A DNA stretch of 64,000 nt from an uncultured Desulfosarcina sp. (GTDB lineage: Bacteria > Desulfobacterota > Desulfobacteria > Desulfobacterales > Desulfosarcinaceae). The notes under the pieces were generated by a model. It ran no database searches and had not been told where the DNA came from. It saw only the letters and a program-made list of their open reading frames with translations. The stretch's first letter is position 1, and every line of letters starts with the position of its first letter. Below, piece after piece: positions 30,331 through 61,882 of this stretch. Position numbers and translations under genes: made by a program. The DNA lies in NCBI GenBank assembly GCA_963674945.2, contig CAXXWQ010000003.1, positions 832,001 through 896,000 of the forward strand. The letters are read 5' to 3'.

Positions 30331-31094
30331 CAGAAAACCCTTTCAACCATACTTGAGATGTAACTGCTGACCTTCGTCACGAGCTTCTTTGCTTTGATCC
30401 CGGGATGCCACCATGAATTCGGATCGCTATTGTCACTCACCCGGCGGAACGTCGCATATTGATTCTGGGTCGCCTTTTTATAGGTCTTTGCGATCTTGAC
30501 CATTCCTGCATAGGGACTGAATTTCCACTTATAAGCCCCAGGGCGCCCCCCTTTCACCGCGGGCTGAGTCTTGATACCGAATCCGCCGAAATCTCCCGCT
30601 CTTCCTCCCCACACTGTCTTTCCACCCACTCCCTCAACACTCGGCGAAAGCTTCCTGGCCTCCGTATAGATCATACTCGTCTGCTTTCCCTTTGCATTGA
30701 CACCGGTGAACGGCATCGGGGTTCCCACTCGCTTGCCGGTCGTACCGGGAGTGCCATGGCGGAACGGCACCGTATTGTACCTCTTACCGGCCTTGGTCCT
30801 TTTAGCATTGGGTCCAGCCAGAAGCCCCGGTTTCATATCGAAAGGGGCTTTTCCATTTTCGATGGCATTGGGCAACTCACCAACCAAGTGGACGGCCGCC
30901 CAGTTTCCATCCATCTCAACGGGCTGGATGCCGGCGATGTAATCCGCGGCGCTGCCGCCCAGGTTCTGCTGGGCCAGCCGGACCCATTCCGACCGGGCCA
31001 TCTCCGCCAAGGTGTAAACCCGTTCCCGGATCTCGTCTTCATCGACTCCGACGGCCGGCAGATGGCCCGATATGTCTACGCTGATGATCGACAT
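30330..31094 (-). CDS. Neck/tail-completion protein
   Basis: LPNAIENG..PFDMK, VPFRHGTP, YATFRRVSDNSDPNSWWHPG, as in A511/Twort-like neck clusters. Confidence 0.6.
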   Translation of the reverse strand: MSIISVDISGHLPAVGVDEDEIRERVYTLAEMARSEWVRLAQQNLGGSAADYIAGIQPVEMDGNWAAVHLVGELPNAIENGKAPFDMKPGLLAGPNAKRTKAGKRYNTVPFRHGTPGTTGKRVGTPMPFTGVNAKGKQTSMIYTEARKLSPSVEGVGGKTVWGGRAGDFGGFGIKTQPAVKGGRPGAYKWKFSPYAGMVKIAKTYKKATQNQYATFRRVSDNSDPNSWWHPGIKAKKLVTKVSSYISSMVERVF

Positions 31095-32776
31095 TATTCA
31101 GTATGTTCCAGGTTTTTCTTGGGGATCTTTTCAAGGACACCATGCGTATGTCTGACATAGGCATGATCACCATCTGTTGATTCGACAGTACCAACCGTGC
31201 CATGGGTATTCCGACGGGCGTCATTCACTTTGACCTTATGGCCTTTGGCAAAATCACCACGAGCTTTGGCTTCCTTGCGAGCTTTTTCCTCCCGAACTTC
31301 TTGAGAAGATCGTCGCGTTGACGTCTTTTTATCAACCGCCGCACCCTTTTTCTCTTCGGGTTTGTAGATCGTAACCGCCTTGCTCGCGGCATCGAAATAA
31401 GCTACACTTTTGCCATCCTTTTCGAACATAGTTCCGCCAGAAGACCCGGACATCGTTTTATCCCAGATGACCCCGGATCCCTTCAAAACCCTTTCAGCTT
31501 CTTTTGGTGTATGAACATCCCTCACGATCCGATCGCCGGCAGGTTTATCTACAGCTTTTTTCTTTGCTTCCGCAGTTTTCGAAGCAATCCGTTGATGTTT
31601 CGACGAAAAAGTCTTCTTGGCAGTCGAATCTTTTTTATCCCAATCCGGATCTGCGTTTTTGGCCTTATCCAACATCTCTTTGATTTTTTTGCCATCAGAA
31701 AATGGAATCTTTCCAACGTCAAAAATGGGATTTCCGGCCTGTTCTCCCATCCCGTAAAACATCACATATTTTTCGTTGGTATCGACTGAAGCGGTGACGC
31801 CATCTATCTTGTAAGTCGAACCACCCCCGTGGACTTTTCCGGAATAAGCCCACCCCTCTTTTTTAAGAAGGGATTTCAGTGAACTTTCCGTTAATGATTC
31901 CTGATCCGCTTTCGATGTTTTACTGGCCGCATCCTTTGCCGCCTTCCGGCGCTTCACTTCCTCAGTCACCTTGTTCATCAGATCGGCGAAAAGTTTTTTC
32001 CCGGCGGCATCCAGCTTATCCTTGTTCTCGTTTCCCAGCTTAACCAACGTATTGCTATACTCAGTCAACTGTTGATCGGACATCTTTTTGTAATCTTTCA
32101 TGAAACCGTCGAGATTGGAACTTTTGGAGTCTTTCTTTTCAACCGCATTTTTCAAACCAGCAAGAGCAGGAGCAGCATTCTTATCCTTTCCGTCTTTTTT
32201 GTTCTCCGATCCCTTGATATCGGAAGGATCAACAGTATAGCTCCCGGAGCCAACTTTCACATTTACCTTGCCGGGAGCCACATATTCGACCACCCCTTCG
32301 ATCGACTTATCTGACGCCAACGCATCATACTTTCGAGGGTTGGTTATTGTGACTCTATCCCCTGGTTTGAAGGAACCCTCCTTCGAATCCGCCACCTTTG
32401 CGGTGCCCGCATCCTTCGAATCGTGGTGTTCCAAATGATCGGCATGGAAGTCGACAGCATGTTTCTCTCCCTCAATCTTCCCCCGAACGACATCGTATTT
32501 ATCCGAATACCCGGACACCTCCATGGTCTTGCCATGGTGCTTGCTCTTCGGATTGTTGACCTTTACCTTATGGCCTTTATGAAAAGACACGGCGACCTCA
32601 TCCTTATGTCGCGCATCATCGTAATCTTTGATAAATTCCCGGCGACCAGTCTTGGGATTCACTCGAAAATGGGCTTTAATATGAGCCTTTATGAGATCCC
32701 CACCAAGCAACCGACCAAGATCTTTGCAGTCACCAGTATCTATGCTTTTCGCCAACGCTTCATCGTATGCGCCCAT
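31094..32776 (-). CDS. Lys-rich protein with shared N-terminal motif and three KOW/SH3-like repeats
   Basis: DLIKAHIKAHFRVNPKTGRREFIKDYDD; FHKGHKVKVNNP, FKPGDRVTITNP, FAKGHKVKVND. Confidence 0.7.
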   Translation of the reverse strand: MGAYDEALAKSIDTGDCKDLGRLLGGDLIKAHIKAHFRVNPKTGRREFIKDYDDARHKDEVAVSFHKGHKVKVNNPKSKHHGKTMEVSGYSDKYDVVRGKIEGEKHAVDFHADHLEHHDSKDAGTAKVADSKEGSFKPGDRVTITNPRKYDALASDKSIEGVVEYVAPGKVNVKVGSGSYTVDPSDIKGSENKKDGKDKNAAPALAGLKNAVEKKDSKSSNLDGFMKDYKKMSDQQLTEYSNTLVKLGNENKDKLDAAGKKLFADLMNKVTEEVKRRKAAKDAASKTSKADQESLTESSLKSLLKKEGWAYSGKVHGGGSTYKIDGVTASVDTNEKYVMFYGMGEQAGNPIFDVGKIPFSDGKKIKEMLDKAKNADPDWDKKDSTAKKTFSSKHQRIASKTAEAKKKAVDKPAGDRIVRDVHTPKEAERVLKGSGVIWDKTMSGSSGGTMFEKDGKSVAYFDAASKAVTIYKPEEKKGAAVDKKTSTRRSSQEVREEKARKEAKARGDFAKGHKVKVNDARRNTHGTVGTVESTDGDHAYVRHTHGVLEKIPKKNLEHTE

Positions 32777-36210: not shown

Positions 36211-37650
36211 TTAAATGAGATCGACTTTCTCACTGCCTCCGACATTGATGAACTGTACCCATTTCTTGGGCGCATAGATGATGAAGGTCAAATAACAGAG
36301 AATCATCCATCGATATGCGGGAGCCAAGACAGCCAGATCCATTTTCATCAATGGAGCAAGCTGTTTGACAGCAAGAACCTGAGAACTCAACTCGCCAACG
36401 AAAGCCTTGGTGGTGCCGGCCATATTCTTGCCGGTATCATCCCAGGTCGTGGTGCCACTGCCAGCCTGACTGGTTGCTCGAACACGGGCGACCAACATTT
36501 TGACCGAACCACCGACTTTGGTCTTGTAGATATTGAAATACTCGGGTTCAATGGTAACCGAACCCGCATTTGTGATGGTGAACGGAATGTGTTTTGCCAC
36601 ATCATCGGAACCAACGGTAACCGGGGAACCGATGGCCACGGCGGCCGATTCACCGTACCGGTTAACGGCGGAAACGGCGTAATTGTAAACACCGGCACCG
36701 CCATGGGTTGTCCAGACACCATCGGTACCCGTCATCGATCCGGCCGCAATGGAGGCCGGGGGCGTCGGTGCTTTACCACTGGTTGCCGAAGCCGGCGCGA
36801 TTTTCCCAGCGTTCAAGAACACATCGGGATTCAGATTCACCTTACCGAAAGGCGTATTCACGTCGGGAATATTGGCGCCGACGGTATAACCACCCTGTCC
36901 GGTCGGCAGGGGCACACGCTCTTTGGGCAACATGGTGTCACAGAAGGCCTGATGGGCCGCAAAACTCAAGAATACATCCGTGGGATTCCCGTAGTTACTG
37001 GCGACCATCTGGGCGGCCAAGGAGAACGCACCTTCGGACAAAGCGGCGCCCTTGAGGTCGATGACATTGCCGGAATCGATCTGTTTCTCGATGCCATTGA
37101 ATTCCACACCCTCACGATGGGTGGAATCGGTGGCCGCTCCCAGATAACACATGTCGGCGTCGCCGTTGAGCAGACCCCACTCCAGATTTTTGAGAATCCA
37201 GAGAATACCGTTGGTGTTTTCCTGGGCCGTCACATCCCCGATATTGGTTTTTACCAAAGTCATGGGATGGGAAATGCTCCTGGTCGTACCCAGAAATTTC
37301 ACCAGGGAGGTCTGTCGGTTATAGGTGGAATCCACGGTTTCGGGCAGGGTTCCTTCGGGAAGAAAGGCTCCGCTCTCATCACCGACCGCCGACAACTGGT
37401 TAAACTCTTCGACGGTGGAGTACGCAGGCAGCTTGGGCACTCTTTGCCAGAAGGCACAGTGTTTGGCCTGATGGGTCAGAACCTTCAAAGAGGCTTCCAG
37501 GGACTCGACACGCAATGCCCCACCACCGGAAACGGGCGGATTGTCATAGCCGGCGGTCAGAGCTTTGTTGAGATCCTCGACTTCCCGCATGCTGGTGAAT
37601 CCCATGGTATGGATATCTTCATACTGGGCAAGGGTGATAATATCGTTCAT
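36211..37650 (-). CDS. Major capsid protein (A511/Twort-like, HK97 fold)
   Basis: KALTAGY..GGGALRVESLE, AYSTVEEF, GAFLPEG, LVKFLG, LEWGL..GD, EFNGI, LAPLMKMDLA. Confidence 0.88.
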   Translation of the reverse strand: MNDIITLAQYEDIHTMGFTSMREVEDLNKALTAGYDNPPVSGGGALRVESLEASLKVLTHQAKHCAFWQRVPKLPAYSTVEEFNQLSAVGDESGAFLPEGTLPETVDSTYNRQTSLVKFLGTTRSISHPMTLVKTNIGDVTAQENTNGILWILKNLEWGLLNGDADMCYLGAATDSTHREGVEFNGIEKQIDSGNVIDLKGAALSEGAFSLAAQMVASNYGNPTDVFLSFAAHQAFCDTMLPKERVPLPTGQGGYTVGANIPDVNTPFGKVNLNPDVFLNAGKIAPASATSGKAPTPPASIAAGSMTGTDGVWTTHGGAGVYNYAVSAVNRYGESAAVAIGSPVTVGSDDVAKHIPFTITNAGSVTIEPEYFNIYKTKVGGSVKMLVARVRATSQAGSGTTTWDDTGKNMAGTTKAFVGELSSQVLAVKQLAPLMKMDLAVLAPAYRWMILCYLTFIIYAPKKWVQFINVGGSEKVDLI

Positions 37651-37707: not shown

Positions 37708-38505
37708 TTACTCGCTGGTGAGTTTTTTGATCAAATGCGGCGAAAGTGAACCACCGGACTCGAATCTGACGATATCCATGGATGTCACAGCCGGATCACC
37801 CCTCTCAAACATCGATGTCAGGGACTTGAGGATTTGATCTTTGCTCATCTCTTTTTTTTCACCCTCACCACCCTCGAAAGACTTCTGTAAAACTGTGGTT
37901 TTAGACTTCGGAGTCCGAAGAGGTTGCTTGGCCAATTCATTGTTCAAGGCTTCCACGGACTTGCGAAGGTCTTCGGTCTGACGATCCGTTCGATCCGCTA
38001 CGGACTGAAAAGACTTCTTCAATGTATCGACGATGGAAAGGGCAATATTCTGATTAGCCTCGGTGGCCTTGAACAGACTCTTCTCGATGGCGTCAAGCCT
38101 CTCAGTTTGCGCCTGACGGATTCCATCGATGGCCTCGCCGACTTTATCGACAAGGGCGGCCAAGAAATCACTCACTTCGACGGCTTTTTGGATATCCTCA
38201 TTGTCGTTAATGAGATCTTCCGTGAAAGGACTGTCTTCGGAACCGGCTTCGGCGCTTTGACTTTTCTCGACACCTTCATCGTCGTTTCCATCTTCATCTT
38301 CATCTTCATCGCCATCGCCGCTTTTTTCCAGGTCGCCGCCGCAGCCCTTGTCCAAATCCTCGATGCCACCATCGGTTTGACTCTTTTCCAAATCCTCGTT
38401 CTCTCCATCACCCGATGGAATCAGTCCTTTGGCGAGTTTTTCAAGCTCATCCAAAGCCGCGAAGAAAGAATTTTCGGGGATGGCTTTTTCTTTTTGTTCA
38501 AGCAT
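37708..38505 (-). CDS. Capsid scaffolding protein
   Basis: Acidic coiled-coil protein between protease and capsid genes; many (L/I/V)xK(S/A/G) motifs; AAGGAGG RBS. Confidence 0.7.
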   Translation of the reverse strand: MLEQKEKAIPENSFFAALDELEKLAKGLIPSGDGENEDLEKSQTDGGIEDLDKGCGGDLEKSGDGDEDEDEDGNDDEGVEKSQSAEAGSEDSPFTEDLINDNEDIQKAVEVSDFLAALVDKVGEAIDGIRQAQTERLDAIEKSLFKATEANQNIALSIVDTLKKSFQSVADRTDRQTEDLRKSVEALNNELAKQPLRTPKSKTTVLQKSFEGGEGEKKEMSKDQILKSLTSMFERGDPAVTSMDIVRFESGGSLSPHLIKKLTSE

Positions 38506-38521
38506 GATTACCTCCTTGTAA

Positions 38522-39415
38522 TTATGATTTGACACTTGCCAAAAATTTCTGCATGACAGAATTGAAAACCATTTGTACCAACCGTCTGGCTTTTTCCTCG
38601 GAATAGCCTCTTTCTTTCATCAGACGTTCAATGGCTTCTTTTTCAGTGATTTCGCCGCCGGCTCCAGGCATATCCAAATTGGTAAGCCCTTCTTCGATAG
38701 ATTCTTTACGAAGCGCAGACCCTCCGCTTTGCGGTGGATTCTGATTTCCGGCTTCCATCATTTTGGCCAGATCTCCAGACATTTTTTCCGGACCACGAGA
38801 AAAAATCTTTCTGAAAGCCGATAATATGACGTTCTCCATCCGCTCCCAGTACCCCAAAGGTTCGGGCTCCTTGGGTGTCTCTTCCTCATCTTCAACGTAA
38901 CCGTTGACTTCAATGTCGTTGGAAATACTTTTGATCACATCAAGGAAAGTATCGGGGTGCATCGGCTCGGCGGTGATGGCGATATCTTTGATCCAGCTTC
39001 TCTTGACGATCTTGCCGTCTCTTTTGAGTGTTTTTCCTTCGACACTGAGACCAAGCCGACGATCACTGCCAGATTTTTGCAGAGCATCGGCAAGTTCAAC
39101 GATACCTTGGGCGCGAGGCGTGTCGAACAGATATCCTCTAACCCTCAAACCTTCAGGGGTAACCGCAGCTTCTGTAGGCACACCAACTTTCCCGTCGGTC
39201 GTCTTGGAATGGTTGTCGTTGAAATAACCCCGGGAGAGAAGATACGAAAGATCCATCCCAGCCAAAATCACCGTCTCACCAACAAGGTCAGGGGACTCGA
39301 CGGAAGCGACACCATCGATCCAGGTTTTTCCGTCCTTTCCCTTTTTCAGATCGAGCGGAACATGAAACCGGAACGATCCGTCATCGTGAATGCCTAATGG
39401 TATTTGTGATTCCAT
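38522..39415 (-). CDS. Prohead protease
   Basis: IDGVAS.ESPDLVGE, GYFNDNH (His), LGLSVEG (Ser), IAITAEP. Confidence 0.85.
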   Translation of the reverse strand: MESQIPLGIHDDGSFRFHVPLDLKKGKDGKTWIDGVASVESPDLVGETVILAGMDLSYLLSRGYFNDNHSKTTDGKVGVPTEAAVTPEGLRVRGYLFDTPRAQGIVELADALQKSGSDRRLGLSVEGKTLKRDGKIVKRSWIKDIAITAEPMHPDTFLDVIKSISNDIEVNGYVEDEEETPKEPEPLGYWERMENVILSAFRKIFSRGPEKMSGDLAKMMEAGNQNPPQSGGSALRKESIEEGLTNLDMPGAGGEITEKEAIERLMKERGYSEEKARRLVQMVFNSVMQKFLASVKS

Positions 39416-40242: not shown

Positions 40243-41082
40243 TTATTTACCCTTGGGCTTTTTGAAAACGATTCGACCATCGTTATCGAACTCATGAAGT
40301 TTTGGATTGAAATATGCCACTTCACAGAAACAGTGAGGATGAAGGGGTGGAAGCCCCGGTGCCCGCCGGATCTCCGCAGCCGTCCGGTCGACGTTGTTCC
40401 TGGCGGCTAAATCGGCAAGTTTGAATACTCGTGGTTTTCCCCTCAACAGAAAAGCCGATCGACAGAGATCACAACAATCCGGGTGCGGGCGGACAATCAC
40501 GCAGGACTCAGCCCCGAACTGTTTTGTAATGCCATGGGCGATGCCATTTGTCCGGGCGCCATGCAATTCAGTATTGACGATCCGGTGCCAATCCCTTTGG
40601 ACATCTTCGGTCGCCCGCCGTAGCAAAGCGATCATCTCTCCCCGGGCTTTCCTCTCCCGGGCCGCATTCGACATTGTTTCCTGAATAATCCCCCGCATGG
40701 CCGTTTCCTTGGCCGCATCCTGAACGATCCTCAACGTAGTCGATTCGATCCGGTTCCCCAGGCCCTGGCAATAAAGGGCAGCCGAATCATTCAACCATTT
40801 GATTGAAGCCTTTTCGATATCGCTCAATGGCAGCCGGCGAATGGTATCCTTGATCATGTCAAAAGACGCCCCGGCCAGCCTCGGGTCCAGTGAACTGAGC
40901 ACACCGAATAAATAGGCATCAGCGACGGCGCTATCCGGTACGGATGGATCGATAATACCTGCCGCCTGGAGTTTGCGAATATCGATTCCAGATGGAGGGC
41001 TGCCGGTAAATTGATAGATGGCGATCCCCACATGCTCCCGGATGATTCGGGCGATTTCTTCGATCTGTTCTTTATTCAGCAT
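40243..41082 (-). CDS. MuF/SPP1 gp7-like head morphogenesis protein
   Basis: RIVNTELHGARTNG, CCDLC, PPLHPHCFC. Confidence 0.8.
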   Translation of the reverse strand: MLNKEQIEEIARIIREHVGIAIYQFTGSPPSGIDIRKLQAAGIIDPSVPDSAVADAYLFGVLSSLDPRLAGASFDMIKDTIRRLPLSDIEKASIKWLNDSAALYCQGLGNRIESTTLRIVQDAAKETAMRGIIQETMSNAARERKARGEMIALLRRATEDVQRDWHRIVNTELHGARTNGIAHGITKQFGAESCVIVRPHPDCCDLCRSAFLLRGKPRVFKLADLAARNNVDRTAAEIRRAPGLPPLHPHCFCEVAYFNPKLHEFDNDGRIVFKKPKGK

Positions 41083-44246: not shown

Positions 44247-44258
44247 GTAATTAATTAC
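44247..44258 (-). promoter_or_regulatory. GTAATTAATTAC palindrome, copy 6
   Basis: Exact copy, extended to 16-bp palindrome AAGTAATTAATTACTT; upstream of GGAGG RBS of the CDS starting at 44226. Confidence 0.75.
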
Positions 44259-45021
44259 TTGGATTTATAGGTAAAATTAACTGTTTTTCTTTCAATTCAC
44301 CAGTATCAGCACTGGGTGATCGTGACTTCAGATCGTCAATGGCATCAAGCACCTCTTTCGGGTCCCGGCCGGAAGCCTTCACATCCGCCTGGTGGAGAGC
44401 AAGCAATGGTTCGAAATGTTCATGTGCCATGAATTTTCGCGCATCTCTTTCGCCCGATCGGAGAAACTTGGTCCGCAGGTTCCCATGGTGGAGAACCAGG
44501 TGCCTGATCTCCTTTTTATCATCACGGGAGAAACCCAGGCGATCCAAAACCTTTCCCACCATTTTGTAGCCGGCGTACTCATGGCCATCGAAGACAATAC
44601 CGCGATCGGGATCTGCCTTTTGGGTTTCCGCCTTTCCGATGTCATGCAGCAAAGCCGCCCACCGCACGTTATCGCTGGCATCCGCCGGCAAATGTTTGAT
44701 GACCTGCATCGTATGATCAAACGCATCCCGGTAAGGGTGATGGGCGCCCTGCTCCACCCCGTACAAGGTGACCACCTCGGGCAGAGAATTCATGAAGCCG
44801 CCGGTCTTGATCTTCGTCTCCAGCTCTTTCAACCCATCCGGGCTTTGAAGCAGTTTCGTCACGGTTTCCCGGATCTTCACCATCCCCTTGTCAGGTGCAA
44901 CGAAATGACGAACCTTTTGTTTCGATGAATGAGAACCCCTTTTATCCCGCTTGTCATCGTGCTCTTTGACGACCTGGAGCTTTCCCTGCCGATATCGAGT
45001 GTATTGCTTAACGTGGGACAT
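44251..45021 (-). CDS. HD-domain phosphohydrolase (CCA-adding-enzyme C-terminal type) with basic N-terminal motif
   Basis: LPE...L.GVEQ..HHP..DAFDHT, WAALLHDIGK, FDGHEYAG, LVLHH, ADVKAS; no nucleotidyltransferase domain. Confidence 0.85.
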   Translation of the reverse strand: MSHVKQYTRYRQGKLQVVKEHDDKRDKRGSHSSKQKVRHFVAPDKGMVKIRETVTKLLQSPDGLKELETKIKTGGFMNSLPEVVTLYGVEQGAHHPYRDAFDHTMQVIKHLPADASDNVRWAALLHDIGKAETQKADPDRGIVFDGHEYAGYKMVGKVLDRLGFSRDDKKEIRHLVLHHGNLRTKFLRSGERDARKFMAHEHFEPLLALHQADVKASGRDPKEVLDAIDDLKSRSPSADTGELKEKQLILPINPSN

Positions 45022-45030
45022 AAACCTCCG

Positions 45031-45324
45031 CTACTTCTTGACGATGAATTTCCTCGATCGGCGTTCGTCTTCCATGGGAATTGCCTTTCGGCGTTTTTCG
45101 ACAAATTCCCATGGACTCGAAATGGTAACCATGTCACCGTCTTTGACCGTCGAATCCTCGTACTGGCACTCAACGCCTTGATTTTGAATCGTACCGGCAA
45201 AAAGAGGACAGGCAGCACAGTAATTTTTCTGATGTGTTTCATCCAAAACGGCAACCTGCCTGAGATATTCACAATAGATTTGATTATTCAAATCGGGATA
45301 GTTCAAATGCAGAACGTTTTTCAT
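45031..45324 (-). CDS. Small Cys-containing hypothetical protein
   Basis: 97 aa, GGGGG RBS, directly downstream of PARP-like gene. Confidence 0.6.
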   Translation of the reverse strand: MKNVLHLNYPDLNNQIYCEYLRQVAVLDETHQKNYCAACPLFAGTIQNQGVECQYEDSTVKDGDMVTISSPWEFVEKRRKAIPMEDERRSRKFIVKK

Positions 45325-45852
45325 GCTTTCCCCCTTACGGCCGACTGGTGTTACCGAATCGATCCGTCAATTCCAGATCAACCCAATACATCGGAATGAC
45401 GCCATTCGGATCTTTGACAACATGTTCATCATTCACCACGGCGCTGCTGTATCCTGGGACCATTTTTCCTTTTGGAGCAAAAATCGAATCTGCCTTGGTG
45501 ATATCTGCTATTTCATGCCTTTTACTGTTCGACGCACCAGTGGATTTATCGTGCACCTTGCCCAAGGAAATTTTATTGATCAAAAAGACCCCGCGGGTCC
45601 CGGGTTGCCTGGTCACATGACAATCCCCTTTGAGATATTGCGCAGATTTGGAACTCATGTCTGTGACATACACACCCCCGCCAAGCATCCCACCGCTTGA
45701 AGCCCGGTACGCAGACTTCACGATACCGGCTGCAGCAGCAAAATTGGTGGAATGGTAACCGAACATGATATTGTCTCGATCTTTTTCAATTCTCTTGAAT
45801 TTATCGTACTGATCCATGCCTCCAATCTGATAAATGCCATGAACCTTAAAAT

Positions 45853-48308
45853 CAGGAAACTTGATTTCCTAATTGTTGCATATGGCAAGCAAAACATAAT
45901 GTAAGTGGTTGAAAAACAGAAAGATAGGAGTCTGAATCCAGCAGGCCGGTAAGGTATTGCAACCGGAAAATGAACATGGCACCTTTAACCTTATTATCTT
46001 GGCGGATAAATGAAAGGAAAAGGATGCCATGCCTCAACAGATACTACCACTTATTCCTCGGGGTGCAAGACAAATCAACGGGCTTGTCAGTGTATTTCGT
46101 GACGATACGACCTGGACCTATTTTCTATCGACCGTTCCGATTTATTCTCACAGACAAGGCGATCAACGAATGTTTCGGATGATAACAGCCCAACTGGTTG
46201 AATCCGGAGCTTGCCGCCAGATCGATATCCAAAACACATTCGGCGTATCCAAGAGCAATGTCATCCGATCCGTGAACAAACTCAGGTCCGGCGGCGCCGA
46301 GGCATTTTTCGTTCAGCGGCGGGGACGACGCGGCGGCAAGGTTTTCAAACCTGAGGTGCTTGAACAAGCCCAACGTTTACTGGATCAAGGGTGCTCGAAA
46401 AAAGATGCCGCCCTGGAACTTGGCATTAAATACGATACGTTTCGCAAAGCTATAGATGATGGTCGGTTAATCGAATCAAGGATTGGTGAACCGTGTCTAA
46501 CCAAATCAGATCGGGACATGGTCGACATGGCTGCTGCCGATGGTATGGGGACGGCTTGCAACCGAGTCGGGGAACGCATATTGGCATCATTGGGCAAAAT
46601 GGTTGGTGCGCCGGTTCGTTTTGACAGATGCCTGGACGTTCCCAAAGCAGGCGTTCTTTGTGCGATACCGTCATTGGTGGCAAACGGGTTGTTTACCGGC
46701 GCAAAACAGTTCCTCGGCCAAGTCAAAGGCTATTACACGATCTTTCATGTCTTGTTGCTGCTTTCGTTTATGGCCTTATGCAGGATCAAGACGACAGAAA
46801 AAATACGAGGCCATGCTCCGGGAGAATTTGGTAAGTTATTGGGCTTGGATCGTGCACCGGAGGTTCGCTGTTTGCGTTACAAGATGGATGCGTTGAGCGC
46901 AGACCACGGCGCGGAAAAGTGGGCCGCATACCTCGGTAAATACTGGATGGAACAGGCGCCCGAATCGGTTGGCGCGCTTTATGTTGACGGGCATGTACGT
47001 GTTTATCATGGAAAATTGACCCGACTACCGCGCCGCTACGTGTCCCGGGAACGATTGTGCATGAGGGGCATTACCGACTATTGGGTTAACGATGCGATTG
47101 GCCGACCTTTTTTTGTCGTCGAAAAGCAGATCGATCCTGGATTATTGGCGGTTTTAAGAGACGATATCGTTCCCCGGTTGTTGCAAGACGTTCCGAATCA
47201 ACCCGGTTTGCAGCAACTACAAGAGAACCCATGTTTATGCCGGTTCGTTCTTGTTTTCGACAGGGAAGGATATAGTCCCGCATTCTTCAAGGAAATGTGG
47301 GATCGCCATCGAATCGGCTGCATGACGTATCATAAGCATCCTGGTGAATCATGGCCGGAGCATTGGTTCACCGAGTATGAAGTTGCGATGCCAAACAAAG
47401 AGGTGGTGAAGATGCGGCTTTGCGAAATGGGTAGTTTGGTGGGATCTGGTAAGGGTGCAACATGGATGCGACAAGTGCGAAAACTGACCGATTCCGGACA
47501 CCAGACCAGCGTAATCAGCACCGCTTTCGATTTGCCGCATACTCAATTGGCAGCACGCATGTTCAGCCGGTGGTGTCAGGAAAACTTTTTCAACTATATG
47601 ATGCAACATTTTGATATCGATGTGCTTTTAGATTATGGTGTCGTTGAATTTCCTGATACCGAACGGGTAATCAACCCCGTTTGGCGGCAATTGAATCAAT
47701 CCCGTAATTCGTTGCAGAACAAGCTACGATATCGTCGTGCCTGTTTTGCCGAGATGACCATTCACCCTGAAAATGAAGACAAACCGGTAAAGTTTAAGAA
47801 GTGGATAGAGAAAAAGGCCGAGCTGTTAGAAGAAATCGAAAAGATGGAGTATCAACTCAGCGAGTTGAAAGAAAAACGAAAACAGACAAGTAAACACATC
47901 ACGTGGGGAGAACTTGAAGCAAAAGATAAATTTTTACGTTTACAACCGGGCAGAAAACGCCTGATGGACACGGTTCGTATGATTGCATATCGTGCAGAGA
48001 CGGCAATGGTTGGGTTGCTCACGGGTCCGACGGTAAACTCGTCGGATGCACGGAGTCTTCTCCAGACACTGTTCCAGACCGAAGGCGATGTACTGCCCGA
48101 TATTGAAAATCAGCAATTGAATATACGATTGCACGGCGCTTCGTTCCCAGCGGCCAATCGGGCTCTTTGCCAACTGTTTGCGCATCTGAACAGTGCGCAG
48201 GTAAAATACCCCGGTACCGAGCTGCAAATGATATTCGAACTAAATGGCTGCAGCACCTCAAATCATGCCGGAGGTGTCACATAGTTTTCCCGGAGATGCA
48301 GTGTTCTG
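45853..48308 (+). mobile_element. Insertion sequence (2456 bp, family not assigned)
   Basis: Imperfect IRs CAGGAAACTTGATTTCC / CAGAACACTGCATCTCC; 5-bp TSD AAAAT at 45848-45852 and 48309-48313. Confidence 0.88.
46029..48284 (+). CDS. Large DDE transposase with N-terminal HTHs
   Basis: 751 aa; YVDGH, VFDREGY, RW.QENFF motifs; fills the IS. Confidence 0.85.
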   Translation: MPQQILPLIPRGARQINGLVSVFRDDTTWTYFLSTVPIYSHRQGDQRMFRMITAQLVESGACRQIDIQNTFGVSKSNVIRSVNKLRSGGAEAFFVQRRGRRGGKVFKPEVLEQAQRLLDQGCSKKDAALELGIKYDTFRKAIDDGRLIESRIGEPCLTKSDRDMVDMAAADGMGTACNRVGERILASLGKMVGAPVRFDRCLDVPKAGVLCAIPSLVANGLFTGAKQFLGQVKGYYTIFHVLLLLSFMALCRIKTTEKIRGHAPGEFGKLLGLDRAPEVRCLRYKMDALSADHGAEKWAAYLGKYWMEQAPESVGALYVDGHVRVYHGKLTRLPRRYVSRERLCMRGITDYWVNDAIGRPFFVVEKQIDPGLLAVLRDDIVPRLLQDVPNQPGLQQLQENPCLCRFVLVFDREGYSPAFFKEMWDRHRIGCMTYHKHPGESWPEHWFTEYEVAMPNKEVVKMRLCEMGSLVGSGKGATWMRQVRKLTDSGHQTSVISTAFDLPHTQLAARMFSRWCQENFFNYMMQHFDIDVLLDYGVVEFPDTERVINPVWRQLNQSRNSLQNKLRYRRACFAEMTIHPENEDKPVKFKKWIEKKAELLEEIEKMEYQLSELKEKRKQTSKHITWGELEAKDKFLRLQPGRKRLMDTVRMIAYRAETAMVGLLTGPTVNSSDARSLLQTLFQTEGDVLPDIENQQLNIRLHGASFPAANRALCQLFAHLNSAQVKYPGTELQMIFELNGCSTSNHAGGVT

Positions 48309-50756
48309 AAAATAGAATCCACCATGGGCCTTTTTATCCCACCGATTTTCAATCTTCTTCATGATGAAATCGTGAGTCTTTTGGTCAACCGATTTAAAAG
48401 TGCACCCCAGATTATTTGGCGGCGGCTCCCCTTGATTTTTGGCAGGAGCATTTACATCCACCCCTTTTGCCTTGAGCTTTTTCTGCTTCTCGACCTCTTT
48501 CCAATATCTCTTGGACATCTGATCGACGACGCCATCATAGGAGCCAGATTTTCTAGCGATCTTCATGCCGATAGCCCGGGGACCTTCCTTATCCATCAAC
48601 CCTTTGGGAAAAACTCGAGCCGTGAATTCACGGTCGTAATTTTTCGATATTCTCGTAGAGCCCTCTTTGGCAACATAATTTGCCGCAAACTGATCCCGCA
48701 TCATGTCATTGGCCTGAATCTTTTCATCGACCTTATCACTCATGGATTCAGTCACTTTTGTTGCCAGCGAAATATCAAAAATTTCAGTATGAGTTCTCCA
48801 ATGATTTGTCGGATCCGGTTTAGAACCATCTGCAAGCAGATATTGAACCAAATCATGATGTTCACTTATCCAATAGCTGCTACGATTGAACATGTTTCTT
48901 ATTATACTGTTTCTGTTATAATGAGACCCAAAATTACCCACCACTTCTTTGACAATACTGCTCTTTAACTCCAAATGATTCATGTACGAATCGGTATTGT
49001 AAATTTTTGCTCCTGGTTTTGTTTTTGTCGACGGATTATCGGCGATAAATTTTTCATAGCCGGTAAGAAAATCCCTTAATGTCATCTGGTCAGCCGGCTT
49101 GCCAAAGTCTGGGCCGGCCATGGCGTGCATCAAAGTTAAACATGAATCATGATCAAACCTGGGCGCATGATCCAGTAAAGAGTAATGCTTCAAAGTATTT
49201 GAGACATTACTGTCGAGATGAACATGATCCTCCATTTGTTCAGAGAAGCCTCCGGTGACCTTTTTGGAAATACGTTTATATGTATATTCAAGCACATGAT
49301 TGATCACATCAAAAGCCTTATGCTCTCGACCCTTTTCCGCCATACTCTTCAAATCAGTTTGGATATCTTCGATATGTGGCTTGACGTCTTTGTCATAATC
49401 GTATCCGGCCTTTTCCCAATCATCCTTGCTGTAGAACGCAAAACCAACCAGGTTACTTGAAACCTCCGGATCATTTATCGACCAATCATTAGGCGGCCGA
49501 TAAGCCAAAATTTTGAATGAACGCCGGCTGTACCTTGAATTCAAATCAGAATTCACCCATTGCGGAACCGTATAACCAGTTCGAGTTTTAATCCCATACC
49601 AGCTCCCATTGCTTTTGTTGTAACCTTGATAACTTGACCGCCCACTGCTGCCCCTTTTGGCCGTAATCAATTGAAGATTCTTTTCGATGTACTCGGCAGC
49701 AGCAGGATCCAGCGGAACCATGCCAGTGACCTTGGCTATAGATCGCTGTTTCTCGGTTGAATATTTCCAAGCCTCCCTTTTATCGTGAGGAAAATCCTGG
49801 GCCGTTTTGATAGGTTCAACCTTTTTCGGCTCCGGTTTCGCATCGGGTTTGATATCGACTGCAGGTGTATTGCCTGGGGTCAACGACGGCTGCCCGGACA
49901 AATTGACCAATGCCTTCGGACTTGCATCGGTATAAGTTCCATCATCCAGCTTCATTCGAACGACATCGTATTTGTCGGAATAGGAAGTGACCACTCCCTC
50001 TTTATCATGATGCTTGCTGCGAGGATTGCTGATGCGAACCTTGTCACCCGGATCGAAAGTGGTTTTGGGAGGTGCCGCCGGAGCCGGTTTACTATCCGGA
50101 GCTGCACTTTTGGCTTTTTTCGGTGTTTGGTTCTGGGCCCGCTTAATCAATTCGGCTTCGATCTTCTTGGCAACATCCCTTTTGTCTTGGCTGTTTGCCC
50201 ACTCCAGAAGTGCACGCATGAAATTGTAAAGCTTCTGGTCGCCCTTGATTTTCCCGATCCGGGCTTCCAATTGCTTGGCATCCATTCCCTCGACACGTTG
50301 CTTTTCATGCTTCATGTCATTATGAACGAAAGACACCCCAACCAGGCCAAGGGCCAGCTTTGCACCATCCAGATCCGTCACCCCGGGCGCCGGCGTAGCG
50401 GCGGGCGCCGTCGGCGCTGCCGCCGGTGTGGGAGCCGCACCCGTATGGGGTTCAAGTAAATGAGGCTCGAAATCGGCCGTATGACTCTTCCCGGGGATCT
50501 CCAGTCGGATGACATCGTATTTGTCAGAGTAATGCTTAACCTTCATCACCTGGTCATGGAATTTGCTCCGAGGATTATTCACTCGGACCATATGCCCCTG
50601 GTGAAACTCGGCATCCGCCTTGCCATGGATCTTCGAATCATAATCTTTGATATGAATCAGTTTTCCGGTTTTCGGATCTCTTCGGAAATGAGATTTCACA
50701 TGGGCTTTTTCAAGATCGATGGTGATGTAATGGCGCATACCCCCCCCTCCATCATT

Positions 50757-50792: not shown

Positions 50793-51575
50793 TTACACGA
50801 ATAAGACACACAGTACGTCTCTTCGACAGTTGGACCTCTCCATCCCATCCAAATCGAGGGCTTTCTTTATTGACTCCTTGAGACGGTCATACTCAGCCTT
50901 GATCTTGTCGCGCTCCGGACCAGCCTTTGAATGGGCCAGAATTTCCTCCAGGTTCTCCAGATAATCAGCTTTCGAAATACGAAATTTACTGGCACATCGA
51001 CAAGGTTTTTCACTCCCACAGGCAGAGCAAATTGTATTGTATTTTTGAAGATAATCCGACTTGCTCAACCCGGTGAAAGACAATGACTTGATCATCCCCT
51101 TGGACTGAATGGCAAGGCGCTGCTTAAAGACTGACATGTCCATCTCGGTCATCCCACCGAACAACTTTTGGCCGATCTTGTCGTAATTCGCCATGAAGGC
51201 CGCTTTCGCATCTTCCTTGGAATCGAAACAAAGAAAAACCTTATCCTCGTCGAACTTCCCATTGTCAGCCCGGTTCATGTGGACCACGAAAACTCTCTCA
51301 GAACCCCGTGACGGCCCGATAAAGCAATCGATATGATCATCGTCGGCACCCTTTCGCCGAACCTCATCAGAAAGACGGATATACCCGTAAGCATGCTTCA
51401 TTTTGGTTCGCCACTCGTGGCCATCCTTATCGACACCTTTGCGGACAGATCCCTTGCGATTCTCGATCGAAATATTCAGTCCTTGAAAATCCGTCCGCCC
51501 TTGGAGCTTATAGGCTTTTTTTTCAAGATCGATGATCAATTTTGTCATTGCGGGTCCCTCTCTATTTATACTCAT
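50793..51575 (-). CDS. InPase (inorganic-pyrophosphatase-like, polyvalent-protein type) domain protein; start may be 51548
   Basis: GLNISIENRKGSVRKGVD.DG.EW...M...YGYI, GADDDHID.FIGP, FDEDKV...F.S...A..A...NY. Confidence 0.78.
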   Translation of the reverse strand: MSINREGPAMTKLIIDLEKKAYKLQGRTDFQGLNISIENRKGSVRKGVDKDGHEWRTKMKHAYGYIRLSDEVRRKGADDDHIDCFIGPSRGSERVFVVHMNRADNGKFDEDKVFLCFDSKEDAKAAFMANYDKIGQKLFGGMTEMDMSVFKQRLAIQSKGMIKSLSFTGLSKSDYLQKYNTICSACGSEKPCRCASKFRISKADYLENLEEILAHSKAGPERDKIKAEYDRLKESIKKALDLDGMERSNCRRDVLCVLFV

Positions 51576-51682: not shown

Positions 51683-51943
51683 ATGGTAAAAATCGATGAC
51701 CTACTATTGATATTGAAGCGAAATCCGAAGGATATCCGATTTTCAGATTTGTGCAAAGTATGTGACCATTTTTTTGGAGAGGCGCGACAGAAAAAAAGCA
51801 GTCATCGAATTTACAAGACACCTTGGCAAGGCGATCCAAGGGTAAATATCCAAAATGAAAAAGGAAAGGCCAAAGCATATCAAGTAAAGCAGGTGCTTTT
51901 GGCTATCGAGAAATTGGAGGTAAGCCATGGCCAAAAAAAATGA
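51683..51943 (+). CDS. hicA: HicA-like toxin
   Basis: NPKDIRFSDL.KVC..FFG...SSH.IYKTPW.GDPRVNIQ...GKAKAYQVKQV. Confidence 0.8.
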   Translation: MVKIDDLLLILKRNPKDIRFSDLCKVCDHFFGEARQKKSSHRIYKTPWQGDPRVNIQNEKGKAKAYQVKQVLLAIEKLEVSHGQKK

Positions 51944-52259
51944 TAAATATACATACAGGGTTACCTGGTCTGAAGATGATACAGAGTATGTGGGCCTATG
52001 TGCTGAGTTTCCCAGCTTGAGTTGGCTGGCCGATACACCTGAAAAAGCCTTAAAAGGCATCCGAAATCTTGTAGCAGAGGTGTTATTAGACATGACCCAA
52101 ACCAGCGAACCAATTCCCAAACCAATAGCAAGTAAACATTTTAGCGGGAAATTTATGGTCCGGATACCTCCAGAGGTGCATAGAAAATTAGCCATACAAG
52201 CTGCTGAATCCGGCATAAGTCTCAATCGTATTATCAGCTCCAAATTGAGCCAGATGTGA
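51927..52259 (+). CDS. hicB: HicB-family antitoxin with RHH domain
   Basis: YVGLCAEFPSLSWLA.TPE.AL; FSGKFMVRIPPEVHRKLAIQAAE.GISLN. Confidence 0.88.
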   Translation: MAKKNDKYTYRVTWSEDDTEYVGLCAEFPSLSWLADTPEKALKGIRNLVAEVLLDMTQTSEPIPKPIASKHFSGKFMVRIPPEVHRKLAIQAAESGISLNRIISSKLSQM

Positions 52260-56931: not shown

Positions 56932-57471
56932 TCAAATAAATATCCGGATGAAATCTTGCGGTAAATAACTCAAGACCAAAAATGGCATCAATACCTTCCG
57001 TTGAGCGGCAAAATGTCGGGATATCATGCCGAAATCATAATCCGTCAATTTGACCAATTGAATCTCTGGAATATCAATCAACTTGAAATCCTCAAGAATA
57101 ACGAACAAGGCTTGCACCTCGGGAGGAAGCGCATTGTATTCTTTTGTAATGAAAATGACAAAATCCGCATAAGTGATCCCGCTGATTTGAACATCTTTAA
57201 GGATAATTTCCATTCGATCGATGAACGCCAACGCCTGCGATACCGTATACGTTTTTGAAGCAACACCTGCCAAATTTGCAATTTTCAACACACCGGATAC
57301 TGCCTCGGGCGTGACATTGACTTTCTCTGAAATCTGACAAATCACGGATGTTTGGCCATCCGGAATCTTGGCGCACACGGATTCGTTGCTTGCAAAGTTT
57401 GTGGCACAGGCACACACGAGTAAAAAAACAACCGACATGAAAAGCAAACCAACTCGTTTTGTATTAAACAT
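56932..57471 (-). CDS. Putative lipoprotein
   Basis: GGAGG RBS; MFNTKRVGLLFMSVVFLLVCAC lipobox-like signal. Confidence 0.55.
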   Translation of the reverse strand: MFNTKRVGLLFMSVVFLLVCACATNFASNESVCAKIPDGQTSVICQISEKVNVTPEAVSGVLKIANLAGVASKTYTVSQALAFIDRMEIILKDVQISGITYADFVIFITKEYNALPPEVQALFVILEDFKLIDIPEIQLVKLTDYDFGMISRHFAAQRKVLMPFLVLSYLPQDFIRIFI

Positions 57472-58420
57472 GATCATTCCTCCTGAATTCATTAATATAG
57501 TTTTCGAAATCCCATTTTTTGAAAAACTGAGCTGCCGCCATGGCGCCAGAGTCATACAGACGGTCCCGCGTGGCATTGTCCATCCCGAAATTGACAAAGG
57601 AATTACCCATAGTATCGATATGGATTGTCCGGACTCTCTCAGACGCTTCCATGGCCCGGGCGTCGTGAGCATCAAGCATCGTATTGACAAGAGCCATGCA
57701 CAGATCTATCGGACCACTGATTTTTGAATAATGATCAATTGGAAGCCCCTGACGAAAATCTTCCAACTTGAAACCGAACGTCGGCCACCTGGGAGGAAGA
57801 TTGTCCTTCCTATCGAATAACCAGACGGGATAATTGGAAAGCACACCACCATCGACGATATGACAAGGACCTTGAGAGTGATGCAAACAAACTGTCTCAA
57901 AAAAGACCGGTACCGACATGGACATTCTTACAGCCAATGCGATTTCAAACGCATCTGGATCAATACCGTATTCGGCTATGTCACCGGGAAATATCAGCAT
58001 CTTCCGGCGGGAAATATCCGTTGCGATCATCTGCAAGGGATAACCACCATCTTCACGCTTGATGAGATCCCCGAACGTCCGCGCCCTGCTCGGTGAACGT
58101 TCCAGGTGCCCCCGCATCCAATTAAGAAAGTAATCCCCTTCATAAAAACCATTCTCGAAAAGAATTGACAAAACGGGGCCAAGCACCGGAATCCTGTCGA
58201 TCGCCCCTTTGTCACAGAATTTCTGATAATTGGTATTGGAGACGATATCGGAAATTGTATTGGCATCATATCCGCCGGCGATCAGTGCGGCCACGATCGA
58301 TCCCGCCGATGTTCCTGCCACGCGATTGAACTCGTATCCCATGGCTTCAGTAACCGCGACAGCGCCACACAAACCGACACCGTTTACCCCACCCCCTTCG
58401 AACACAGCATCACATTTCAT
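57464..58420 (-). CDS. Patatin-like phospholipase
   Basis: EGGGVNG, GTSAG (catalytic Ser), VDGG (catalytic Asp). Confidence 0.92.
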   Translation of the reverse strand: MKCDAVFEGGGVNGVGLCGAVAVTEAMGYEFNRVAGTSAGSIVAALIAGGYDANTISDIVSNTNYQKFCDKGAIDRIPVLGPVLSILFENGFYEGDYFLNWMRGHLERSPSRARTFGDLIKREDGGYPLQMIATDISRRKMLIFPGDIAEYGIDPDAFEIALAVRMSMSVPVFFETVCLHHSQGPCHIVDGGVLSNYPVWLFDRKDNLPPRWPTFGFKLEDFRQGLPIDHYSKISGPIDLCMALVNTMLDAHDARAMEASERVRTIHIDTMGNSFVNFGMDNATRDRLYDSGAMAAAQFFKKWDFENYINEFRRNDHV

Positions 58421-59806: not shown

Positions 59807-61444
59807 TCAACTGGCGAGCATGATTTGGAGATACTTACTCTCAGCACCGACAAGCGCCTTTTCCATTTCCTCGCCATTCAGCTCATCCTCTGCCGAAATC
59901 TCCTGATTTTCCTGTCCTCCACCCCCTTCCTGACCCTGTTCCTGGCTATTCTCTTCTTCTGAACCTTCCTCCGATTCTCCACCTTCACCGCCGCCCCCCA
60001 TCATACCAGCCATGGCTTGCTGGTTTAACCACATGACATATTGAGGATTCAAGATAAGGCCGCCGCCCTTATCTTCCCCAAGCGGTTCGCGCCCAGCTTC
60101 AATCCGTGCCTCATCGACGGTAAGGTATGACCCCACTTCTTTTGTCCGAAGATCGATAACCTCTTTCTCATCTTTGGAGTCGATGCCGACCCAAACGAAT
60201 CGAAACTCATCCGTTAAGGGCTCGATGATGTAATGATTCACCCATCGGCCAACAGACGCAAGAAGAGGCCGAAGGCCTTTATCCTTCGACATCTTGAGCT
60301 TGGCTTCCTGATTGGATTCGAACAACGGTGCAGAACCACCGCTGCCGGCTGACATGAAGAACCCGATTTCTCCGGCGTCAATCGAATAAACAGCGCAAGC
60401 AATTTTTACAAGAAAATCAAGGTATTGTGTAAACTCCATTTCGCGGTTCGTCGAACCCATGTTGACGAATTCCACCCCATCCGTCTGAAGAATCGGCGTC
60501 GACCAGGCGTTTTTAGTTCCAGTAACCATCGCCCGCCACGCCCGCTTAAACGCTTCAAGCTGATCACCCATGACACCTGACTGGGCCTTGCCGGTTTTAA
60601 TATTGATCAATCCCTTCACGGCCGCTCCATTCTGGAAAAACTGACTGTTATGGGTCATGGCGTTGAAGATATTGGTCACGATCGACACGAGCTGCTCAAG
60701 CTCGCTCACCCCGTAACCATTATTCTTGATATTGGTCGTGGGATTCCGGATGCCGTACAAAATCTCATCCGGTTCGTATTCAGTGACTATTTGGCCATTG
60801 AGAACCTGGACGTACTTCTTGTCATCCAACCCTTCGTCATCTTTTTGAGCCAATGCCAAACGGATAGTCGCCGCATCAACAGCATAAAAAGAATGAAGAC
60901 CGCCTTTCCGGGTCGGAAGCAGCTCAGTCACAGCCGCATCGAATGTAAGTGAATCCCTCACCGTCTTTTTCAACCAGGTGTCGAAGTTATCTCTACCGGC
61001 ACGAGTCTGCTTGGGGTCGACATAACCACATCGACGAATGAAATTTTCTAAATCTTTGACATACTGCTCTTCGCTTTTGGACAACTTCTTATTCGGATCT
61101 TTGTGTGCGACACGGAAGCCAAGCTGATCATTGCCAGTGGTTTCCATCTCGCTGACGGGTGCCGAAAAAACTCCGACCTGCCGAATCCTCGTATTAACGA
61201 TCGAACTGATAATAGGATTCTTTTCGGCCATCACCCGAAGAGTATCCCAAGTTAAATTGCTCCGCCGTTCACGCCAGAGACCATATTGACTCGTAAAATC
61301 ATAAGGATTGACAAAAAAGGTTTGTGGAGTATCTCGACGTGCGGGGAGTTTTTCACCACTGACGCTTTCTTTTTTGGCTTTTGCCAATTCCTCCGCCGCG
61401 AACTCGTTCAACAGTTCAAAAAACTCTTGGTTTTCCATTGCCAT
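59807..61444 (-). CDS. Phage portal protein
   Basis: 545 aa; VRDSLTFD, YGVSELE, N..FFQNG..KG.I, MEF..YL..L...CAVY.ID..EI, LTVDEAR...GREPL..GG..ILNP. Confidence 0.9.
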   Translation of the reverse strand: MAMENQEFFELLNEFAAEELAKAKKESVSGEKLPARRDTPQTFFVNPYDFTSQYGLWRERRSNLTWDTLRVMAEKNPIISSIVNTRIRQVGVFSAPVSEMETTGNDQLGFRVAHKDPNKKLSKSEEQYVKDLENFIRRCGYVDPKQTRAGRDNFDTWLKKTVRDSLTFDAAVTELLPTRKGGLHSFYAVDAATIRLALAQKDDEGLDDKKYVQVLNGQIVTEYEPDEILYGIRNPTTNIKNNGYGVSELEQLVSIVTNIFNAMTHNSQFFQNGAAVKGLINIKTGKAQSGVMGDQLEAFKRAWRAMVTGTKNAWSTPILQTDGVEFVNMGSTNREMEFTQYLDFLVKIACAVYSIDAGEIGFFMSAGSGGSAPLFESNQEAKLKMSKDKGLRPLLASVGRWVNHYIIEPLTDEFRFVWVGIDSKDEKEVIDLRTKEVGSYLTVDEARIEAGREPLGEDKGGGLILNPQYVMWLNQQAMAGMMGGGGEGGESEEGSEEENSQEQGQEGGGGQENQEISAEDELNGEEMEKALVGAESKYLQIMLAS

Positions 61445-61668
61445 TAGAAATCCTCTATTGGTTTATTGAAAAGAGTGCGCGCCGCATACGGCAATTCACC
61501 GGTTGACTGTTCATCCAAATCCGCCCGGACGAGGCTCACATCCAAACCAGGAATATGAACATGCTGCCGATGACGACACTTGTTACACTCGACAACAGAA
61601 CCCTCAAGATTTATAGGATTAGTTTCCCCACCACATTCATTACACGCCATCTCTCCATCCGCTTTCAT
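61444..61668 (-). CDS. Small zinc-ribbon protein, first gene of the cluster
   Basis: CNECGG...CNKC; stop overlaps portal start. Confidence 0.55.
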   Translation of the reverse strand: MKADGEMACNECGGETNPINLEGSVVECNKCRHRQHVHIPGLDVSLVRADLDEQSTGELPYAARTLFNKPIEDF

Positions 61669-61669
61669 T

Positions 61670-61681
61670 GTAATTAATTAC
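61670..61681 (-). promoter_or_regulatory. GTAATTAATTAC palindrome, copy 11
   Basis: Exact copy, one base from ATG at 61668; marks right edge of cluster. Confidence 0.75.
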
Positions 61682-61882
61682 TTAAATTCTATAACATGGC
61701 GCAGGATGGTGTCAACTGGAAAGGTGAAATGCTATTATAAAATGTAGCGGCAAAAAGTTTGATACTACCTGTAGTTAAGGAATTTCCAAAAAACAGACGA
61801 CCGGTGCCTCCTGATCATGATTGCTTCAGGAGCCTTGTCCTGATACAGATGAAGGAAATAAGTGAACAAAGGAGGTCAGGAA

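Follow-up and report, generated by a model that had tools for sequence, protein, structure and literature searches.

A predicted ADP-ribosyltransferase gene split by an insertion sequence

We analyzed a 64,000-nucleotide stretch of the chromosome of an uncultured Desulfosarcina sp. of the Desulfobacterales (contig CAXXWQ010000003.1, here C3, positions 832,001 to 896,000; hereafter the window), most of which is taken up by the structural module of a prophage with a contractile tail. Among its head genes lies a gene for a poly(ADP-ribose) polymerase (PARP)-like ADP-ribosyltransferase (ART), broken in two by an insertion sequence (IS) and followed by a small gene encoding four conserved cysteines (Table 1). 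The gene belongs to a phage family whose predicted catalytic domain is of the PARP type, whose close members are accompanied by the same small gene, and whose N-terminal L-x-K-A site points to processing and packaging. With modest confidence, we favor the reading that the intact protein is injected with the virion and transfers single or short chains of ADP-ribose to host proteins.

The first-pass annotation of the window had joined the open reading frames (ORFs) on either side of the IS into one gene of 980 codons, and this is borne out by the exact ends of the IS, the AAAAT duplication on both sides of it, and the absence of internal stops. Its count of 810 + 170 codons gives the same total as our separate translation of the halves (808 codons, one split codon, and 171 amino acids [aa], or 980 aa). 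The open frame of the 5′ part continues inside the IS as far as 48258, giving 826 aa. Intact homologues span the junction: a search with the C-half among longer proteins (251 candidates) identified five intact proteins of 965 to 974 aa, and intact homologues of 965 to 1030 aa are collinear with both halves across the break. In the five proteins, the N-half matches residues 1 to ~800 with 31 to 49% identity and the C-half matches the residues immediately following with 61 to 76% identity, as in P0002 (1-800, 48%; 802-969, 75%). A second copy of the ART gene was not found elsewhere in the genome.

The genome carries 28 full-length copies of the IS with 99.8 to 100% identity and the same two ends, and 23 of the 28 have a 5-bp target duplication; the break is in itself an ordinary event. 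It falls at about residue 42 of the ART-domain model, which is the start of a core strand, and the 160-aa ORF beyond it begins at model residue 54. Because the break falls there and the ORF lacks two strands and one helix of the model, the enzyme in this genome is, judging from the model, very likely dead, as the first-pass annotation had supposed. A GGAGG upstream of the 160-aa ORF sits one base from its ATG, and no promoter-like site was found in 45300-46100. A junction skipping the IS, as expected of an IS-free allele, was not seen in the contigs of four of six sequencing runs, the best of which may be the source sample.

The prophage contains seven multicopy elements, among them three copies of this IS within its ~122 kb (0.48 expected, P 0.013), a second of which splits a 554-codon frame. 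Given these elements, the second split frame, and the IS excess, the broken ART gene most likely reflects general prophage decay, not selection on the gene itself. The same observations, which fit relaxed selection on the whole prophage, speak against the idea that the ART gene and its small neighbor are expressed in the lysogen as a toxin-antitoxin or superinfection-exclusion pair, with the insertion selected since the enzyme harms the host. Such a pair would suit the tight linkage of a large enzyme with a small protein, the integrase of the prophage, and the classification of its relative G061 as a provirus; however, the two genes lie inside a late head cluster and also occur in phages described as lytic (YungSlug; PMC12474458). 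We consider this explanation very improbable.

A predicted PARP-type catalytic domain

The 160-aa ORF holds the motifs in which the first-pass annotation had recognized a PARP signature, and it passes the Pfam PARP profile (PF00644) with 39 bits against a cut-off of 26.7, as do six of seven full-length close homologues (P0004 falls below). A profile built from seven homologues retrieved 1746 representatives at E ≤0.001, including 107 at 1e-30, and the best 150 of these were listed. In a set of 159 proteins, which includes a few redundant cluster members and two unrelated repeat proteins, 136 matched the C-terminal profile, 133 of them over at least 120 aa. The H-Y-E triad is present in the window copy and in 130 of the 133 family domains, and the domain ends within 30 aa of the C terminus in 132.

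The ART domain of an intact homologue (112 alignment rows) was modeled with a predicted local distance difference test score (pLDDT) of 95.2 and a predicted TM score (pTM) of 0.90. Its Z scores were 19.6 with tankyrase-2 (177 residues aligned, root mean square deviation 3.3), 18.8 with PARP2, and 18.4 with PARP1, compared with at most 6.4 for bacterial toxins, below 5 for R-S-E enzymes, and below 6 for small-molecule or NADase-type ARTs. Foldseek gave E 7e-15 and a query TM score (TMq) of 0.72 against PARP1. The family profile aligns across the whole ART domain of PARP1/2 (E ~1e-22) with the signature motifs in register. By predicted fold and triad, the domain is a member of the PARP-type catalytic family and not a WGR-containing PARP1-like enzyme; among the family members scanned, none had a WGR or PARP_reg domain by Pfam. 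As a side result, chain B of PDB 9k3a, a pre-ejectosome protein of cyanophage A4, gave Z 5.5 with the ART model, which is too low for kinship.

The complete PARP-type fold and the low Z scores of NADase-type ARTs speak against an injected domain that mainly hydrolyzes NAD+ or makes a soluble ADP-ribose product and so acts on host metabolism or NAD-based immunity. An early drain of NAD+ would also hamper a phage with an NAD-dependent ligase. Nucleotide chemistry is suggested by the neighboring InPase-domain and HD phosphohydrolase genes, and ART folds do include NADases (PMC9503650, section 3.7.1), but we regard this explanation as highly unlikely.

It is less simple to judge whether the enzyme makes polymer. 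The family profile scores PARP2 and PARP1 best (89 to 73 bits), ahead of PARP3 (66 bits) and the tankyrases (59 to 56 bits). The Lys of the S-K-S motif (133 of 133 domains) and the next Tyr are invariant, and a Met matching the acceptor-site Met of PARP1 is kept in 112 of 133. Two residues before the catalytic Glu, on the other hand, 117 of 133 domains have Asn where PARP1/2 carry Tyr. The roles of these matched residues (acceptor-site Met, S-K-S Lys, and Tyr before Glu) we take to be those in PARP1, and on this basis the residue picture for polymer synthesis is mixed. PARP3 and PARP4 keep the H-Y-E triad, yet they are mono-transferases. A true polymerase delivered by the virion could build polymer on itself, on host proteins, or on the ends of the incoming DNA, and the four-cysteine protein could then be a separate subunit for activation or sensing. 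The missing WGR and PARP_reg domains count against it, as does the distribution of a stand-alone WGR gene: this prophage and G061 have one, while none was found in four Bacillus-type genomes carrying the ART. Bacterial H-Y-E PARPs do make polymer in vitro (PMC8120803). In its boldest form, this reading would have a genuine poly(ADP-ribose) polymerase injected by a widespread family of SPO1-like phages and controlled by a separate, probably zinc-binding four-cysteine subunit; we think it unlikely. The stand-alone WGR protein was also considered as an obligatory partner of the ART and rejected, being present in one of five records; in this prophage its gene is followed by genes for an AAA ATPase and a CobT/vWA protein (C3:938662-942403).

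The ART is the only enzymatic domain identified in the chain. The middle of the protein (residues 295 to 760 of P0001) had no Pfam or Atlas match, and Pfam found no MuF domain on the ART proteins, the "minor capsid" homologue being a separate gene. A full-length model had a pLDDT of 64 with a poor ART part; its PDB matches were PARPs only, and nothing clear was found in BFVD. A motif in this region, G-x2-3-D-x2-[AT]-x2-Y (P0001 ~325-345, and in the N-half of the window protein), is conserved in 55 of 106 long members versus 1.1 in shuffles.

A four-cysteine gene linked to the ART gene

Directly downstream of the ART gene lies a conserved gene for a 97-aa protein that the first-pass annotation had missed. 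Its four cysteines are invariant in 18 aligned homologues. The protein had no convincing Pfam, PHROG, or PDB match, a word-index search returned only itself, and its Atlas matches were unnamed clusters at 0.91 to 0.93. Among 50,697 GenBank phage records, 4 matched the partner, and these are the same 4 that cover more than 80% of the ART query among 15 ART matches. Intact ART genes are present in four cultured phage records (YungSlug, Nachito, and LysYB1/2), and a genome of the same order as the window, Desulfobacterales, also carries one (ART in 1 of 60 relatives). A scan of 400 other genomes of the phylum did not find the ART-partner pair and gave one marginal ART match (E 9e-4).

We fetched 143 loci with an ART match, corresponding to 103 distinct ones: 34 with a C-terminal ART, 67 of a C-terminally extended type, and 2 cut. 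The partner is present in 25 of the 28 C-terminal-ART loci scoring at or above a post hoc threshold of 90 bits, the other 3 being cut by contig ends, and in 1 of the 6 weaker C-terminal loci, but in none of the 67 extended ones (43 of which have at least 500 bases on both sides). Its position is upstream of the ART gene 11 times and downstream 16 times, and a single case is not directly adjacent; within the 25 strongly scoring loci, 24 have the two genes side by side. In L036, the pair is duplicated, with two ART genes each followed by a partner. The partner profile comprises 18 sequences, mostly from these same loci, yet ten distinct loci outside the profile were still matched (L011-L013, L165, L166, L169, L171, L172, L174, and L200). 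Because the linkage persists through changes in gene order and at 25 to 60% identity, these comparisons argue for a functional pair. A complex prediction with the ART domain alone (211 aa, 59 rows) and the small protein (98 aa, 18 rows) scored 0.01, with controls not folded.

The 67 extended loci (L014, most of L040-L084, and most of L176-L233) represent a second phage PARP-like type with ~110 extra C-terminal residues and without the partner, which includes Stenotrophomonas phage Moby.

N-terminal leader and candidate processing site

The ART protein begins with I-D-L-E-K-A, followed by a basic H-V-K-x-H motif, and its 808-aa N-half contains a single L-x-K-A site, at residue 9. An L-x-K-[ASG] site lies within the first 40 aa of 7 of the 30 head-module ORFs versus 2 of 112 other ORFs (Fisher p 2.7e-4, for a motif picked after it had been seen); the seven are the portal, protease, scaffold, capsid, and ART proteins and two others. 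The scaffold of the window has 12 [LIV]xK[ASG] sites against 1.14 in shuffles (0 of 2000 shuffles as high), and the scaffolds of SPO1, SP-10, YungSlug, and L016 have 8 to 13. Close to their starts, 7 of 7 capsid proteins keep L-[NS]-K-A, and an L-x-K site lies in the first 30 residues of 11 of 12 close homologues of the ART protein. L-x-K-A is the pattern expected of a prohead-protease site and points to processing and packaging of the ART protein.

The first ~100 residues recur in a 560-aa head-cluster protein of the window, and the N-terminal module was found on 21 other proteins: two helicases (one with InPase), one ART-PolyVal, three DUF7717 proteins, 14 without a family, and one with a weak coiled-coil match. 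A 693-aa protein of the window was considered as a carrier of the Bacillus-type leader and dropped, there being no hidden Markov model match among 167 ORFs. Another leader of some family members, G-G-x-G-S-G-N-x-G-H, occurs at 65 viral loci (L096-L160), several per genome; a pattern scan placed an ART or partner gene near it in 0 of the 65.

The ART gene lies inside the portal-to-capsid cluster in the window, in L016, and in L019. The intact locus L016, whose record is classed as a provirus, has the gene order of the window (portal ... InPase, ART, 98-aa gene, HD, 700-aa, 165-aa, and 279-aa genes, protease, scaffold, capsid). In YungSlug, Nachito, and LysYB1, the ART gene directly precedes the portal gene, and in Bacillus-type phages the partner gene adjoins a homologue of the 279-aa gene. 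The delivery by the virion that the first-pass annotation had proposed is thus well supported as far as head-cluster position and the L-x-K-A site go, while injection as such remains inferred.

Position and protease sites would indicate association with the prohead at most. They would also suit a late, noninjected enzyme or structural head component whose ART works during assembly, packaging, or lysis, with phage proteins or DNA as conceivable targets, and protection of the packaging apparatus has been named as an alternative for such ARTs (PMC9503650, section 3.7.1). However, the "minor capsid" and portal genes of SP-10 stand side by side with neither ART nor partner between them, and SPO1 lacks both there as well. 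Because the pair is absent from SP-10 and SPO1 despite the same head genes, it is accessory, and typical injected conflict domains carry the same leader. We think a noninjected role quite unlikely.

Prophage setting and neighboring genes

The capsid protein of the prophage is 44 to 49% identical to those of Nachito, SP-10, LysYB1, YungSlug, and SPO1, all Herelleviridae/Spounavirinae. Phage genes extend past the window to an integrase near C3:963,600, ~122 kb in total, and include, beyond the structural module, those for a terminase, helicase, primase, NAD-dependent ligase, and DNA polymerase III alpha. The presumed prophage ends share no direct repeat of at least 13 bp, and no tRNA gene was found in this region. 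A phage of the SPO1/SP-10 (Herelleviridae) type is integrated here, with an integrase, in a Gram-negative Desulfobacterales chromosome (window ~9000-61500, C3 to ~963,600); its cultured relatives infect Bacillota, and YungSlug is described as lytic. The InPase domain has been treated as likely virion packaged (PMC5512222).

Table 1. Coordinates of the split ART gene, its partner, the IS, and neighboring head-cluster genes in the window
Feature	Position	Strand	Remarks
ART gene, 5′ part	48309..50738	-	810 codons, one AAAAT copy included; encodes an L-E-K-A site (residue 9), a basic leader, two KOW/SH3-like barrels, a helical middle region, and the first ~40 residues of the ART domain
ART gene, 3′ part	45335..45847	-	170 codons + stop; most of the PARP-like ART domain, with H-Y-E triad
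160-aa ORF in 3′ part	45335-45817	-	Contains the PARP-signature motifs
Four-cysteine partner gene (97 aa)	45031..45324	-	10 bp after ART stop; own purine-rich ribosome-binding site
IS	45853..48308	+	2456 bp; ends CAG...CTG
IS transposase gene (751 aa)	46029-48284	+	Transposase_29 (Pfam, 567 bits)
Target-site duplication AAAAT, left copy	45848..45852	.	Right copy, 48309-48313
Portal gene	59807..61444	-	Opens the head cluster
InPase-domain gene	50793..51575	-	Directly upstream of ART gene
HD-domain gene	44251..45021	-	Downstream of partner gene; similar H-V-K leader; same position in L016 and L019
279-aa gene	40243..41082	-	Homologue of a Nachito gene annotated "minor capsid protein"
Prohead protease	38522-39415	-	
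Scaffold	37708-38535	-	12 [LIV]xK[ASG] sites
Major capsid protein	36211-37650	-	SPO1/SP-10-like
560-aa head-cluster protein	31094..32776	-	~100-residue N-terminal leader-plus-barrel module in common with ART protein

Several further genes were noted around the cluster. A small gene and a HicB-family gene lie on the opposite strand within it (51683-52259, +) and are not at this place in L016, and a patatin-like phospholipase gene lies in its portal-proximal part (57464-58420, -). Host-like genes (DUF2703, hemerythrin, and a hybrid sensor kinase) separate the portal from the terminase (window 61500-64000 and beyond, C3 ~893,500-903,000). IS66-type elements are located at 24499-26992 and 10714-12282; the former has an 8-bp duplication, lies just past the tail-tube gene, and splits no long frame. 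QueF-like, QueC, GTP cyclohydrolase I, radical SAM, and PTPS genes (C3:908010-912349) suggest 7-deazaguanine DNA modification. Near the left prophage end, a macro-domain-like gene (6592-7074, +) encodes a possible ADP-ribose eraser; it scored 21.8 bits in Pfam, just below the cut-off, and E 3e-55 with phrog_335.

Proposed function

In the explanation we favor, the ART protein would be made late, enter the prohead by means of its basic leader, and be trimmed there after L-x-K by the prohead protease. Once injected with the virion, it would transfer ADP-ribose from host NAD+ to host targets, serving early takeover or counter-defense by analogy with T4 Alt. That the intact protein has ART activity we hold with high confidence, and its packaging in the head we consider probable. 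Injection as a mono- or short oligo-ADP-ribosyltransferase of host proteins, with the small protein as its likely regulator, is what we somewhat prefer overall. The first 40 residues of the partner contain no L-x-K site, and it would for that reason stay outside the head. Among its possible roles, keeping the enzyme off in the producing cell is the likeliest, a suggestion we make tentatively, at slightly short of even chances; a role as an activator or targeting subunit is the next candidate but appears doubtful.

Several points weigh against this explanation. The literature search found no activity, target, or virion proteomics for any member, and no paper confirming an L-x-K cleavage site in SPO1-like phages (the part of PMC3601020 available gave none). 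The Bacillus-type members have a different leader without the L-x-K site, and across long members such a site occurs in the first 70 aa of 42 of 106, versus 13 in a control stretch. The window copy has Ser after the catalytic His, where 122 of 133 relatives have Gly, though Ser also occurs in 8 relatives. As for the partner, five weaker C-terminal loci lack it; the 90-bit threshold was fixed after the data had been seen; the partner of L171 lies 1 kb from the ART gene; and L033 and L174 each have two ART genes in one head cluster but a single partner. The partner loci are kin, and a single origin is permitted by a quick, unfinished tree with unevenly clipped rows, which is a rough guide only. 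The partner counts also leave out branches with other leaders.

Clustered at 50% identity, the family forms more than 100 clusters, and its active site hardly varies. With the conserved partner gene and the protease-type site, what was a bare annotation can now be put to concrete tests, namely, of virion presence, target, polymerization, and the role of the small protein. A virion-borne PARP system could be tested for at once with cultured phages and, if it exists, would be one possible source of the bacterial poly(ADP-ribose) and PARG enzymes that so far lack an explanation.

Comparison with known phage and cellular ARTs

PARP-like phage genes close to head genes have been published and annotated before, and the first-pass annotation had overrated the novelty of the locus. 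PARP genes have been reported in four double-stranded DNA viruses, two of them phages (PMC4245714), and PART is among the most frequent viral ART families, with 44% of phage ARTs in packaging contexts (PMC9503650). The YungSlug orthologue is annotated as "PARP polymerase," a Menderavirus gene has merely been noted (PMC9025141), and viral PARP-like proteins have been called putative and of unknown function (PMC10789625). YungSlug was not found in part of the supplement of PMC9503650, and the family may be listed in the remainder; a term search of the available text of the YungSlug paper (PMC12474458) gave no occurrence of "PARP" or "ADP-ribos". In the literature outside subscription papers and part of one supplement, we saw neither a test of any phage PARP nor a reference to the partner gene. 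New here are the conserved four-cysteine partner gene and the N-terminal L-x-K-A candidate processing signal.

The nearest known proteins are those of YungSlug (QKE56383), Nachito (UXR28848), and LysYB1 (WAB25175), whose C-terminal H-Y-E domains are 29 to 36% identical to the window type. These Bacillus-type proteins share its head-cluster position and partner gene, whereas the window type has another leader, two KOW/SH3-like barrels, and a place in an integrated prophage of a Gram-negative host. The Aeh1 and Menderavirus types are other phage PARP-like (PART) proteins; unlike the window type, the Moby/Menderavirus type has ~110 further C-terminal residues and no partner gene.

Eukaryotic PARP1/2/3, tankyrase, and the WGR-containing bacterial PARPs have the full ART fold predicted for the window family (Z 17 to 20), the motifs in register, and H-Y-E. 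Bacterial PARPs with WGR domains have been described, as has T4 Alt (PMC8120803, PMC5966428). Compared with WGR-containing bacterial PARPs (Herpetosiphon, C. difficile CD160) and PARP1-like enzymes, the window family has no WGR or regulatory domain by Pfam and has Asn for the Tyr before Glu. Polyvalent proteins and MuF-fused ARTs (PMC5512222, PMC9503650) show the same head-gene context, an InPase neighbor, and a modular N terminus (helicase, ART-PolyVal), but the window family has one identified enzymatic domain, no fused MuF by Pfam, and its effector domains on separate genes, several with their own leader. A conserved adjacent small gene is also a feature of type II toxin-antitoxin and immunity pairs.

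T4 Alt is packed into the head and undergoes trimming by the prohead protease (PMC9958956); it is of the R-S-E class and acts at once on host proteins (PMC8120803), in agreement with what the first-pass annotation had said of its packaging and class. Both Alt and the window family are large proteins with a C-terminal ART, and by analogy with Alt, which is head packed and protease trimmed, the window family likely works in a similar manner. It differs from the R-S-E enzyme Alt in its H-Y-E triad, its predicted PARP fold, and its dedicated partner gene.

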